The notes beneath the pieces are model-generated. The model was not told the DNA's origin. It searched no databases and worked only from the letters and a program-made list of their open reading frames with translations. The position numbers were made by a program, and so were the translations under genes. Source: a virus (taxonomy: Duplodnaviria > Heunggongvirae > Uroviricota > Caudoviricetes). Taken from it: DNA of 10,433 bases. The DNA lies in the IMG/VR virus record IMGVR_UViG_2698536657_000012, positions 1 to 10,433 of that record; one strand, 5' to 3'. Of this stretch, positions 3,060 through 10,140 are shown piece after piece (position 1 is the stretch's first letter; each line of letters starts with the position of its first letter).

Positions 3060-3090
3060 AGTAAAAAGGCCCACCGGAGCGGACGGGCCT
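3060..3090 (-). terminator. Minus-strand terminator-like hairpin (AGGCCC ... GGGCCT) followed by UUUUUAC
   Basis: 6-bp outer stem plus inner CCG/CGG pairs; T5 on the minus strand; lies in the spacer between the two repeat copies. Confidence 0.35.
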
Positions 3091-3275
3091 GGAAGGATAG
3101 CGGTCATGTGATGCCGGTTTCCCGGTAACTCAGCACCGGTATCTGAGTCAACGTTTTCTCTACTGGGTCATTTCCGATACGCCCTGCCTGCTGACAGGCT
3201 TTCATCACATCTGAAAATATAGCACCCTGACTGATACTGTAGTACCCAAGGTTCCAGAAACTGTGATGTATCCGG

Positions 3276-3303
3276 CACAGAAAAGCCCCTCCGGAGAGGG
3301 GCT
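3276..3303 (-). terminator. Minus-strand intrinsic terminator T2: same AGCCCCTC/GAGGGGCT hairpin as T1, followed by UUUUCUGUG; marks the end of repeat copy 2
   Basis: Identical 8-bp stem to copy 1; U-rich tract on the minus strand only. Confidence 0.5.
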
Positions 3304-3530
3304 GACGCTGCGTATCTGTATCATCATGCGCATGGTGCCGGGTGCCTCCCGGTGAGTTCAGTATCAGCACCTGAACCCGCACAGAAAGGATAAGGGATGT
3401 AACCAAACACCTGTCGCTGATATGCCCCTCCGCTCAGGGGGATTCACCATGCCAGTTTCTTTTAACAAACTCCCCGCAAATCAGACAACTGTCAACCGTC
3501 TGAATTGTGAGACATTTAAAATTTTCGGGG
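3284..3530. repeat. Copy 2 of the tandemly duplicated ~250-nt structured non-coding element
   Basis: See copy 1; conserved blocks are identical in order and offset by 486-489 nt; intervening sequence has diverged. Confidence 0.7.
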
Positions 3531-4517: not shown

Positions 4518-4602
4518 TTGTGAAAGGCTCTGTGGTTGATATGCGCCGGGCGTGGCGCGGAGGCAAAAAAGGCCCACAAAAGCGAGCCAGGAAAAATAAG
4601 TG

Positions 4603-6084: not shown

Positions 6085-6115
6085 CACAAATAAAAAAGCC
6101 TTCAGGACTGAAGGC
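6085..6115 (-). terminator. Minus-strand intrinsic terminator: GCCTTCA-GGAC-TGAAGGC followed by UUUUUUAUUUG; overlaps the stop codon of the wHTH ORF
   Basis: 7-8 bp stem and a long U-tract on the minus strand. Confidence 0.55.
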
Positions 6116-6299
6116 GTCTGTAACAACCGAACTGATAGTCTGCCAGACCCGCCATAACAAGCTGGGTCAGTATTAACTGGCAGCGTTCACGTGAAAGATA
6201 AGTATTCTGCGCAATCTCCCCGACTGTCGCCGGTTCGGTGGCACTTAATTCATTAAACACCACTCTGGCGGTTTCTGTCATATCCTGCTGTTTCAGCAT
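6102..6299 (-). CDS. Small (about 65 aa) winged-helix/HTH-like protein, putative DNA-binding regulator (MLKQQDMTETARVVFNELSATEPATVGEIAQNTYLSRERCQLILTQLVMAGL...)
   Basis: ORF-track ORF 6102-6335 has a TTG at its 5' end; the first ATG has an SD (AAGGGAAAAAG). The TVGEIAQ...LSRERCQLILTQL segment looks like an HTH recognition unit. Family not identified. Confidence 0.5.
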   Translation of the reverse strand: MLKQQDMTETARVVFNELSATEPATVGEIAQNTYLSRERCQLILTQLVMAGLADYQFGCYRRLQS

Positions 6300-6420
6300 G
6301 TCTTTTTCCCTTTTCCGGTTAACGTGACACACCAATAACTCTTGTCAAAAAAGCCAGCAAGCTGAAAGACCGGTATTCACCACCACCAGCGCGTTTACTG
6401 TACTGACGAGATTTTCGGAC

Positions 6421-6451
6421 ATAAAAAAAACCACCTGGCGGTGGTTTTTTC
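6421..6451 (-). terminator. Strong intrinsic terminator, tR'-like: CCACC-GCCA-GGTGG followed by U8 on the minus strand (flanked by A8 and T6, so the hairpin is bidirectional)
   Basis: Perfect GC-rich stem with long A/T runs on both sides; located about 60-70 nt downstream of the candidate late promoter. Confidence 0.7.
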
Positions 6452-6493
6452 TTACTTTGCCATCGCGTACAAAATCGGCAAAATATCAGATTT

Positions 6494-6528
6494 ATACGAA
6501 ACATACGCGATTTAATTGACTTTTGCAA
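6494..6528 (-). promoter_or_regulatory. Candidate late promoter (pR'-like): -35 TTGCAA, 17-nt spacer, -10 TATGTT, read on the minus strand; overlaps the last codons of the Q-like ORF
   Basis: Hexamers each 4/6 to consensus with ideal spacing; position relative to the upstream ORF and the downstream terminator fits the lambdoid Q-pR'-tR' layout. Confidence 0.4.
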
Positions 6529-7201
6529 TATCTCGTCGTGAAAAGGTCGCTTTTTGTTGCGCTCTTATTTTCACGGAGCAAATCAAGGATTCTCTATCGA
6601 GGCGCTTAAAAATATCGCACATCTCACGCCAGTAGTTCGCATAATTATGGCTCCAGTTATCAGGCTTAACTCCACACAGTCTGGCAAGCTCCTGTCTCTG
6701 GTAGACCTCACACCCGGTAACCCATCCTCTGACATCCTGTGCCGCCAGCCAGATCAACTTCTTCACACGCTCCAGCGTTTTCACTGCAATTTTTCTGGAG
6801 CCGGACTGAGTTTTAAATTCACTCCACACCCACTGTGTTATGGTGACCTGATCTTCCCAGCAAACATTTCCACTGTAGCACCACAGTAACCACGCCTTCT
6901 GATGTTCTTCCAGTTCCAGAACGGCACGCCGCCACGATGATGTTGCAAACTCAACCGGACTGACCAGAGCAATTGACGTCCCTTTCGCCAGTGATTGTTT
7001 GCCCGGGATCGGTGGATTATCCCGCGTGATCATTTTTCCGGTTACCTCATCGCGGTAACGAATTTTTTTACGTCTGTAACGCCCTGTATCGAACAGGGCA
7101 TTTTCCTGCCAGGCTTCCAGCTGGCCTTTTGTCGACCCACTGAGATCCGCAGTGGCAATCATGAGTTGCTCACGAACAAACTGTAAATACTGGCTATTCA
7201 T
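6512..7201 (-). CDS. Q-like late antiterminator candidate, 229 aa from ATG at 7199-7201 (functional call is positional only)
   Basis: The ORF itself is solid; its start overlaps the rusA stop (ATGAATAG). It lies between rusA and the pR'/tR'-like module, where lambdoid phages encode Q, but no lambda-type Cys4 zinc motif was recognised; a Roi-like or other nin-region protein is possible. Confidence 0.55.
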   Translation of the reverse strand: MNSQYLQFVREQLMIATADLSGSTKGQLEAWQENALFDTGRYRRKKIRYRDEVTGKMITRDNPPIPGKQSLAKGTSIALVSPVEFATSSWRRAVLELEEHQKAWLLWCYSGNVCWEDQVTITQWVWSEFKTQSGSRKIAVKTLERVKKLIWLAAQDVRGWVTGCEVYQRQELARLCGVKPDNWSHNYANYWREMCDIFKRLDRESLICSVKIRAQQKATFSRRDIAKVN

Positions 7202-7556
7202 GCACACCCACCTCTGTAATTCTTATCTCCAGCCGTCCACCAGATACTGGCTGGCCACGTACAATATTGATTTCATCAAACTGCTCATCGTCCATTAACA
7301 TTCCCGCATGCGTCAGCGCATCCAGCGGCGCTTTCAGAATATTGTCCAGGTCACGACGACGCTTATCCGGTGGCTCTGCAATAATTTTTATTGCCAGCCG
7401 TCCGGACAGTCTTAATTTCAGCCGCTGCTGGCGAACAATAAGCGCCACTGCACGGCGATAACGCTCCCCGGCTTTTGATACAAAATATGTGCTGCCACGG
7501 CGTCGCCAGTAAGTGTTCACCGTCGGCGGGTAAGGTAAAACCAAATCTATGAGCAT
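7194..7556 (-). CDS. rusA: Holliday-junction resolvase RusA (crossover junction endodeoxyribonuclease), 120 aa
   Basis: ATG with strong SD (AGAGGTGA); conserved RusA blocks (PPDKRRRDLDNILKAPLDALTHAGMLMDDEQ... GGRLEIRITE) match E. coli RusA as recalled from memory. Confidence 0.88.
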   Translation of the reverse strand: MLIDLVLPYPPTVNTYWRRRGSTYFVSKAGERYRRAVALIVRQQRLKLRLSGRLAIKIIAEPPDKRRRDLDNILKAPLDALTHAGMLMDDEQFDEINIVRGQPVSGGRLEIRITEVGVHE

Positions 7557-9003: not shown

Positions 9004-9438
9004 TTAAGCCGAGCCCGGCACATACCAAGGGAAATAAATATCACTTAACGACGTGTGTTTGAGAACAGAGTCCACCGCCAATTTCAACGTCAACGACATG
9101 AAATTCTCAAAATACCATGAATTTTCTACAAAGAACTTTTCATCGATCGCCCCTCCATTAATGATATCAAAGTCCGTAATCAGCTCCATCTTTAACTCAA
9201 AAGATGGTTCTTCATCACCGACAGGCTCTCCCTCTCTATCAGGATACCCTTTTATCGATGGCGAAAACCCAATCCGAAACCAACTGGTACCATCATCATC
9301 ACGCCCCGAAGCAAATTTAAGTTCCTCAATCGAGACCTTAAAAAAACCTCCATCATCACTAGTGTTATCCCTGAAACTACTGGAAACTATATCGAAACCA
9401 GCATACTTAATATTTTTTAACATCAGTGACGTATCCAT
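9004..9438 (-). CDS. Hypothetical acidic protein, 144 aa, third gene of the hicA-hicB operon
   Basis: ATG at 9436-9438 lies 16 nt upstream of the hicB stop (overlapping genes); SD-like GAGG about 10 nt upstream; D/E-rich; AT-rich codon usage like hicAB. No recognisable domain. Confidence 0.6.
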   Translation of the reverse strand: MDTSLMLKNIKYAGFDIVSSSFRDNTSDDGGFFKVSIEELKFASGRDDDGTSWFRIGFSPSIKGYPDREGEPVGDEEPSFELKMELITDFDIINGGAIDEKFFVENSWYFENFMSLTLKLAVDSVLKHTSLSDIYFPWYVPGSA

Positions 9439-9899
9439 CGCTCACTAACCTCTTTCCTTTTTGTTCTTACTGAAGATGGAACAACATAATTAAGAAGAAA
9501 TACGCCATCCCAAACAAGTGTATCTGCCGTTTCTTTATTTTCGGGATGAGAATGAACTTCTTTTTTACCTGCAATCTTTTCTTCAATGGCTTTACGCACA
9601 TAATCATTAAGCGTCGTCTTATCCATCATTGCAGCCAAAAACGCTTTCTTATGAAGATCGCGACCTATTCTGATGTTAAAAGTACCACTCATTGGTTTAT
9701 CAGGAGATTTACCCAACTGCTTGCATGTATCGAGGTAATCTGTAACAGCCTCTTCAAAAGCTGCCCTTAACCCATCCAGTGTTTCCGCTTCGTAGGTTAC
9801 AACATCGTTTACACACTGAATTTTCCCATGAAGTATGTTATCTTCAAGAGAAATCTCAATGCTACCAAAATAACCTTTATAACTCAGCACATTACTCAT
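9423..9899 (-). CDS. hicB: HicB-family antitoxin (COG4226-like N-terminal domain fused to a C-terminal ribbon-helix-helix-like DNA-binding segment), 158 aa from ATG at 9897-9899
   Basis: YKGYFGSIE...EDNILHGKI...YEAETLDGLRAAFEEAVTDYLDTCKQLGK..P.KP.SGTFNIRIGRDLHKKA matches the conserved HicB pattern as recalled from memory; its ATG overlaps the hicA stop (ATGAGTAA). Confidence 0.78.
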   Translation of the reverse strand: MSNVLSYKGYFGSIEISLEDNILHGKIQCVNDVVTYEAETLDGLRAAFEEAVTDYLDTCKQLGKSPDKPMSGTFNIRIGRDLHKKAFLAAMMDKTTLNDYVRKAIEEKIAGKKEVHSHPENKETADTLVWDGVFLLNYVVPSSVRTKRKEVSERWIRH

Positions 9900-10140
9900 A
9901 ACTATCAATCTCATCCAAAAGATTTTTCACTTCTTTAAGCACATATCCTTTAACAATATTGCCAGGATGTGGGCAATGAAAAGCCACAAGCCTTCCATTA
10001 CCATTGGCAAACTTCCTTCTTGAGCCTGAGCCGGTAAGCATTTCGAAACCATAATGCCCAAGCAACGTCACGAGTTCATCCCATGTAAAATCCTTTGGAA
10101 GCTGATTCAGACGCCCCCTCAACTTCTCTTTTTTGCTCAT
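9892..10140 (-). CDS. hicA: HicA-family mRNA-interferase toxin (YcfA-like), 82 aa
   Basis: Small basic protein, WDELVTLLGHYGFEM...GSGSRRKF...FHCPHPGNIVKGYVLKEV, consistent with the HicA fold motif; located immediately upstream of and overlapping hicB in the canonical toxin-first order. Confidence 0.75.
   Translation of the reverse strand: MSKKEKLRGRLNQLPKDFTWDELVTLLGHYGFEMLTGSGSRRKFANGNGRLVAFHCPHPGNIVKGYVLKEVKNLLDEIDSYE

Follow-up and report, generated by a model that had tools for sequence, protein, structure and literature searches.

The question raised by this locus is whether the short stretch of DNA behind a Q-like gene, in a prophage sequence of 10,433 nucleotides (the window), holds a late promoter and a terminator that together would give a short leader RNA, and what such an RNA could be doing. 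We consider it very probable that the locus is the late-gene control module (Q82-type pR'-pause-tR') of a lambdoid prophage with a phage-82-family Q. The mechanism is already known, being the textbook one in its phage 82 flavour, and this allele has not been individually studied.

The Q gene and the late region

The window corresponds to the nin-to-late region of a lambdoid prophage from E. coli, with its genes on the minus strand. Complete E. coli chromosomes contain DNA identical to it, and the RefSeq annotation there gives the same genes; in strain FHI_NMBU_11 (NZ_CP045712.1) the identical control region lies around 426,220-426,340. The early part carries an ORF with a HicB antitoxin domain (9423-9914, minus; PF05534, E 1e-17) upstream of the gene for a DUF968 protein (8618-7569, minus), followed by RusA (7556-7194, minus) and by the Q antiterminator gene (6512-7201, minus), which encodes 229 aa from MNSQYL; the mechanical ORF start is at 7207. 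The initial annotation had called this ORF Q-like, and it is a true phage 82 family Q antiterminator. It matches PF06323 at E 7.8e-84 with 217 of 220 profile positions covered, and it is 68% identical to phage 82 Q across 229 aa free of gaps. The RefSeq annotation of the identical E. coli locus supports the gene call as well. Three unrelated families of Q are distinguished, of which PF06323 is that of phage 82, and lambda Q belongs to the unrelated family PF03589 (PMC9388147). No lambda-family Q (PF03589) was found at the locus, where PF06323 was the sole Q family, and a PDB sequence search with Q returned no solved relative.

The genes behind the proposed control region all lie on the minus strand. 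The first ORF after the terminator tR' encodes 65 aa (MLKQQDM..., 6102-6298) and is annotated in the identical E. coli locus; it has no Pfam match, and in Morganella phage IME1369_02 (L094, about 1229 onward), whose Q is 38% identical, the terminator is followed by an ORF that begins in a similar way, with MLKQKDM. It is followed by an N6/N4 DNA methylase (5951-4893), a cluster of tRNA-Ile2 and two tRNA-Arg (4852-4603), a second methylase downstream of the tRNAs in gene order, copies of the STnc100 RNA identified with Rfam between the second methylase and the esterase gene, and a NanS-p-like esterase (2558-600). The anticodons of the tRNA cluster are CAU (tRNA-Ile in RefSeq), Arg-UCG and Arg-UCU. 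We take this cluster to be of the ileZ-argN-argO type, typical of Stx-like prophages; no toxin genes are present. The STnc100 sRNA family has strong matches at 2785-2995 and 3275-3481 and a weak third at 3061-3234, and every copy terminates with a AGCCCCTC-TCCG-GAGGGGCT terminator. An Esr41-like Rfam match on the plus strand (519-594), with a terminator-like hairpin (574-586), lies just past the 3' end of the esterase, which is encoded on the opposite strand; it is weak, at 26 bits far under the threshold of 102.

Terminator-like sites are enriched in the window overall, with 27 found against 9.4 expected. Seven of these lie on the minus strand downstream of pR', namely tR' and six further sites at 6098-6115, 4571-4588, 3284-3303, 3067-3090, 2796-2815 and 2668-2683. 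The first of the six (6115-6098, from the terminator scan) follows the 65-aa ORF. Such sites along the late-gene strand fit an operon that requires processive antitermination.

Promoter, pause element and terminator

The initial annotation had placed a sigma70 promoter over the end of the Q ORF. Its hexamers are TTGCAA (-35, 6523-6528) inside the last Q codons, whose stop is at 6514-6512, and, after a 17-bp spacer, TATGTT (-10, 6500-6505), so that it spans 6528-6500 on the minus strand. Taken by itself this candidate is not impressive. It matches the consensus at 8 of 12 positions and is absent from the list of a simple promoter scan, and that scan found 10 promoter-like sites in the window against 11.8 expected in shuffles, that is, no excess. 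Since the promoter alone is weak evidence, comparative support is needed, and whether pR' is real depends on its conservation among relatives.

For this comparison we used 80 viral contigs whose Q is 67-100% identical to that of the window, which gave 43 distinct leader regions. The promoter is kept in all 43, each with the TTGCAA -35, the 17-bp spacer, a -10 of the form TAnnTT, the AAA start and TGnTAT. The -10 itself varies among TATGTT, TACGTT, TACATT, TAAATT and TATATT, and the AAA start and TGATAT are invariant in a 36-sequence alignment. TTGCAA is also the -35 in phage 82, phage 434 and Gifsy-1. The layout is kept in phages with distant Q proteins from Klebsiella (64% and 53% identity), Enterobacter (56%), Cronobacter (47%) and Morganella (38%), and TGnTAT is kept in phage 434 and in the Klebsiella, Cronobacter and Morganella phages. 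With Q identities between 100% and 38%, the Q82-family genes are followed by promoter, pause element and terminator together as one conserved unit. An alternative -10, TATAAA (6496-6491), was rejected, its -35 matching at 2 of 6 positions and the hexamer not being kept in relatives (GTGTAAAT, ATGTAAAT, ATGCAAAT). In phage 434 (L084, 1869-1882) an annotated CII-binding site, TTGCN6TTGC, and the -35 of the antisense-strand promoter paQ overlap the pR' -35; the corresponding window sequence (6516-6529) is TTGCAATATCTCGT, in which the second repeat of the 434-type CII-binding site is lost.

These data bear on a simpler reading of the locus, that the hairpin is a mere terminator of the early (Q) operon, that the promoter-like hexamers are coincidental in coding sequence and that there is no separate short RNA. 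The -35 lies within Q codons, so its conservation could be driven by the protein, and the poor match to consensus and the absence from the simple scan agree with such a reading. However, protein coding does not reach the -10, which is kept at a fixed 17 bp together with AAA, TGnTAT and GCC down to 38% Q identity. Additionally, in Gifsy-1 the promoter block is detached from Q and directly precedes IsrJ, an RNA that has been detected, a plasmid carried IsrJ 'from its own promoter' (PMC2330248), and the same layout was used in the phage 82 pR' biochemistry. We therefore regard the mere-terminator reading as very unlikely.

For the pR' reading the transcription start can be placed at the AAA at 6491-6493 on the minus strand, 7 nt after the -10. 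We infer +1 to be A6493 from the distance to the -10, the phage 82 register and the invariant AAA. With this assignment AAA falls at +1-3, TG at +6-7, TATTTT at +9-14, GCC at +15-17, AUUUU at +19-23 and U at +25. The extended -10-like sequence TG-A-TATTTT (6480-6488, +6 to +14) is the predicted sigma70-dependent pause element, GCC (6477-6479, +15 to +17) would be the discriminator-like element, and the predicted pause site is the U at +25 with +26 (6468-6469), all on the minus strand. In phage 82 the pause element of pR' is an extended -10 nearer to consensus than the lambda -10-like element, the pause requires GCC at +15-17, and an AT-rich stretch lies ahead of the pause, with U at the +25 pause end (PMC5001585). 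All of these published phage 82 pR' features fall in register in the window when A6493 is taken as +1, and the register of the window pause element suits a pause at +25 and not at +16.

The comparison with phage 82 pR' is made through published descriptions and through phage 434, as the phage 82 record ends at the Q stop codon; the -35 is found there at the same position (ATATTGCAAAACTGGATTAA). Phage 434, whose Q is annotated as 'Q82-like', has TTGCAA, 17 bp, TATACT, the AAA start, the pause element TGGTATGTT and, some 55 nt from the start, an annotated terminator. The phage 82 Q-binding element lies within -31 to +30 (PMC4914094), and the window block from -35 to +14 is conserved in relatives. 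E. coli K-12 Qin (L082, about 6360-6460, minus) was rejected as a comparison. Downstream of ydfT it has a different, lambda-like pause motif (AACGATGGG) and a terminator (AAACCCGCTGATGAGCGGGTTTT) behind this Q-like gene.

The other end of the leader is given by tR' (6423-6444, minus), seen in the sequence, in the fold and in relatives. It consists of CCACC (6444-6440), the loop GCCA (6439-6436), GGTGG (6435-6431) and U8 (6430-6423). The near-ideal intrinsic terminator that had been claimed to end at about 6423 holds exactly, in sequence and in end point. A strict pattern (a perfectly paired stem of 5 or more bp, of which 4 or more are G-C, a loop of 3-8 and a run of 7 or more T) has two occurrences in the window, tR' and one other, as compared to 500 dinucleotide shuffles, which gave a mean of 0.006 per window. 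A6 (6450-6445) precedes the stem and the U8 run follows it, and the A-rich linker ahead of the stem (AGAAAAAA, 6445-6452, minus) doubles as a 5' extension of the terminator stem. Lying between an A-run and a T-run, the hairpin (6422-6450) reads as a plus-strand terminator too, with an 11-pair stem in the scan; no plus-strand gene that would use it lies nearby. A 25-codon ORF after the terminator (ATG at 6422, MSENLVSTV...) is probably non-coding, as close relatives L024 and L036 carry a 1-nt indel that shifts its frame.

From the promoter and the terminator we derive a predicted terminated leader RNA of about 71 nt (6423-6493, minus), and the pR'/tR' reading with a short leader that had been proposed is in this way supported. 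In the predicted fold (-26.3 kcal/mol; z = -5.5 against shuffles) there are two hairpins. Hairpin 1 (6453-6485, minus) pairs the RNA of the pause element with GGCAAAGUA in both the minimum-energy and the centroid folds. The second hairpin is the terminator, which behaves quite differently in relatives. A hairpin and T-run ending 53-80 nt from +1 are present in 40 of the 43 distinct relatives, and the other three have a point-damaged stem or a broken U-tract, so that some copies of the module appear to be decaying. The stems vary widely: CCACC/GGTGG, CUGCC/GGCGG, CCCGC/GCGGG, CCUGUC/GGCAGG, GCCCGAGG/CCUUGGGC, GCCACUGG/CCGGUGGC and GCCUCGC/GCGGGGC. Among 28 sequences with the leader type of the window, both partners have changed in 5 of the 9 terminator stem pairs and 93% of cells are paired, while hairpin 1 has 96% of cells paired in relatives and no pairs changed on both sides. 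As a control, sliding the partner by one to three columns lowers the overall pairing of both helices from 95% to 37-60%. Phage 434 and L047 have alleles that lack hairpin 1, and the slot is occupied by at least four unrelated leader bodies. What these sequences show directly is the elements and the register in which they stand, the co-conservation of the elements with Q82-family genes, and the covariation of the terminator.

The leader could also be imagined to be a leader-peptide attenuator or a member of another known RNA family, which we find exceedingly improbable. No Rfam family reaches its threshold on the module, and the sub-threshold scores that might suggest such a reading, 29.2 bits for Phe_leader, 20.4 for RNAI and 19.2 for isrK, lie far below the gathering scores of 55, 47 and 50. 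The alignments run chiefly through the terminator hairpin and U-tract, and we rejected Phe_leader, RNAI, isrK and STnc370 as terminator-driven sub-threshold matches. The transcript from +1 holds a single AUG ORF of 3 codons that lacks a Shine-Dalgarno sequence.

Taking the locus as a Q82-type pR'-pause-tR' module, its start site, pause, Q loading and read-through can be described by analogy with phage 82 biochemistry and with IsrJ. Host sigma70 RNA polymerase would initiate at the promoter overlapping the last Q codons, with +1 at about 6493. Re-binding of sigma70 to the extended -10-like element (+6 to +14) would then cause a pause near +25. When Q is absent, the polymerase would leave the pause and terminate at the hairpin and U8 (6444-6423), giving the leader of about 71 nt; a short terminated RNA has been reported for the phage 82 late promoter (PMC7547250). 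When Q is present, the protein bound to its DNA site beside the paused complex would join the polymerase, and the modified polymerase should pass tR' and the six further terminator-like sites. The late region would then be transcribed through the 65-aa ORF, the two DNA methylases, the three tRNAs, the STnc100 copies and the NanS-p-like esterase.

For annotation, this means that the predicted start of late transcription in the prophage can be placed, and that the two methylases, the three tRNAs, the STnc100 copies and the esterase can be predicted to depend on Q. Modules of the Q82 family should also be recognisable from sequence by a simple signature, which is TTGCAA, 17 bp, TAnnTT, an AAA start, TGnTAT at +6 and a terminator within about 50-80 nt.

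IsrJ and a possible role in trans

The same slot in related modules can hold a known small RNA. The isrJ family (RF01393, gathering score 37 bits) has no match in the window at E up to 1, and none on 6400-6540 at E up to 10. However, the model matches L081, L075, L079, L091 and Gifsy-1 at 42-102 bits. These matches occupy the pR' leader slot (2206-2280 in L081 and 4008-4124 in L086, which is Gifsy-1), and in three viral contigs and Enterobacter phage ENT1 isrJ appears above threshold 16-19 nt after the stop of a Q82-family gene. In Gifsy-1, where AntQ is 62% identical to the window Q, the match scores 100 bits and has TTGCAA, 17 bp and TATATT ahead of it, as well as a relic of the Q 3' end; its first bases are UGUAAAUCUGAUAU. 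Because isrJ matches lie directly after Q stops and behind the pR' promoter, IsrJ would seem to be the pR' leader RNA that belongs to one allele of the Q82-type module. In Gifsy-1 IsrJ stands behind the pR' promoter and behind the Q 3' relic, which is fused to anrP, and this suggests that antQ was separated from its late promoter by insertion of an isrK/C4-like/anrP block.

In Salmonella, IsrJ has been found in vivo as an RNA of 74 nt, and invasion is lowered when it is deleted (PMC2330248). The 5' end mapped for IsrJ falls about 3 nt upstream of the +1 assigned here. This offset could be explained by slippage at the AAA start; the reference list of PMC5001585 includes Guo and Roberts (1990) on slippage at initiation at the phage 82 late promoter. 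A role of IsrJ as a Q-controlled leader is not described in the literature that we examined on IsrJ, IsrK and StxS.

Such a precedent invites the suggestion that the leader of about 71 nt, besides its role in cis, could act in lysogens as a trans-acting sRNA in the manner of StxS or IsrJ, pairing with host or phage mRNAs and perhaps involving Hfq. We offer this tentatively, as a possibility that is on balance unlikely. StxS derives from a pR' leader, and IsrJ sits in the same slot of Q82-type modules and affects Salmonella invasion. Among 20 relatives of the same type, +1 to +45 is 89-100% identical, as compared to 65-98% for the halves of Q and 50-92% for the terminators, and L077 has a leader with 98% identity beside a Q whose 3' half has 65%. 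This high conservation may nevertheless be explained by block recombination rather than selection. The predicted RNA has a stable 5' hairpin, the A-rich linker and the U8 tail; that the linker serves in Hfq binding is only a guess. The absence of covariation in hairpin 1 counts against a role in trans, and the body of the leader is dispensable for the module, given the 434 and L047 alleles and the unrelated bodies in the slot. The lack of any Rfam family at threshold, with isrJ absent even under the relaxed E-value, counts against the suggestion as well. In addition, when the leader was paired against ten translation-start regions of the window, it did no better than shuffled leaders.

In favour of a role in trans, the leader region is common, with a match in 1828 of 5426 complete E. 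coli genomes, roughly one in three, and a query coverage of at least 80% in 1304 of them. Copies of the leader occur in O157, for example at 2,025,209-2,025,318 of NZ_CP038363.1. Full-text literature searches with the leader sequence gave nothing relevant. The published Hfq screen of O157 Sakai (the EcOnc list) excluded peaks within 100 bp of coding regions, and this leader would consequently have been filtered out. From that list we picked EcOnc10-12 and EcOnc33 by copy number or size and checked the coordinates of EcOnc11 and EcOnc33; these two Hfq-bound sRNAs map elsewhere, one behind the endopeptidase gene and the other antisense to the esterase gene at its 3' end, and were rejected as candidates.

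A wider proposal, speculative and in our view rather doubtful, is that the Q82-type pR' leader slot is a swappable sRNA cassette. Loading of Q would fix the promoter and the first ~14 nt, leaving the rest to at least four unrelated bodies, IsrJ being one of them, and the version in the window would be an uncatalogued, constitutive, Hfq-associated trans-acting regulator in lysogens. Among the alleles of the Q82-type leader, our results suggest, is the Salmonella sRNA IsrJ. If the E. coli allele acts in trans as well, then a common prophage-encoded regulator would have been overlooked by standard sRNA screens.

Comparison with known late promoters and their leaders

The closest described system is pR' of phage 82, studied by the Roberts and Hochschild laboratories (PMC5001585, PMC4914094). 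Its Q belongs to the same Pfam family, with the identity given above, and the two promoters share the TTGCAA -35, in the same position within the last Q codons, the AAA start, the extended -10-like pause element, GCC at +15-17, the AT-rich stretch and U at +25, as well as a short terminated leader. The differences are that the phage 82 Q is 32% diverged from the window Q, and that the phage 82/434 type has a different spacer and -10 (TATGTT in the window, TATACT in 434), a different pause hexamer (TATTTT in the window, TATGTT in 434) and different leader body and terminator stem sequences.

Lambda pR'/tR' follows the same logic, with a constitutive late promoter, a sigma70-dependent promoter-proximal pause, loading of Q and a terminator that yields a short RNA (6S). 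However, lambda Q is of the PF03589 family (PMC9388147), unrelated to the window Q, the lambda pause is at +16/17 (PMC5001585) as opposed to the +25 register of the window, and termination in lambda occurs at +193 (PMC4914094) as compared to about 71 nt here.

The initial annotation had also pointed to the regulatory sRNA of Stx phages, and this comparison stands as an analogy and fails as homology. StxS of Stx1/Stx2a phages is likewise an RNA of E. coli prophages that arises from a Q-controlled late promoter by termination at tR', and a similar layout is seen downstream, with tRNAs and a nanS-p-like gene. In these phages Q has 144 aa and the pR'-tR' distance is 258 nt, with RNase E processing to a 74-nt form (PMC7547250). 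The window has a 229-aa Q and a leader of about 71 nt, and on Q type and leader length we reject homology to StxS, which we compared by its published description.

IsrJ is nearer in its place in the module. Like the window leader, it occupies the pR' leader slot of a Q82-type module with the same promoter layout, the first ~14 transcribed bases are in common (AAAUCUGAUAU), and both RNAs have a two-hairpin plan, at 74 nt for IsrJ and a predicted ~71 nt for the window. From about +12 the two are unrelated, and since the sequence differs past the first bases, the window fails the isrJ model. The Gifsy-1 module is separated from antQ by the isrK/anrP block, while that of the window adjoins Q. IsrJ has been detected in vivo and has an invasion phenotype, whereas the window RNA is predicted from its sequence, which places it in the same slot, behind the same promoter and with the same opening bases as this Salmonella sRNA.
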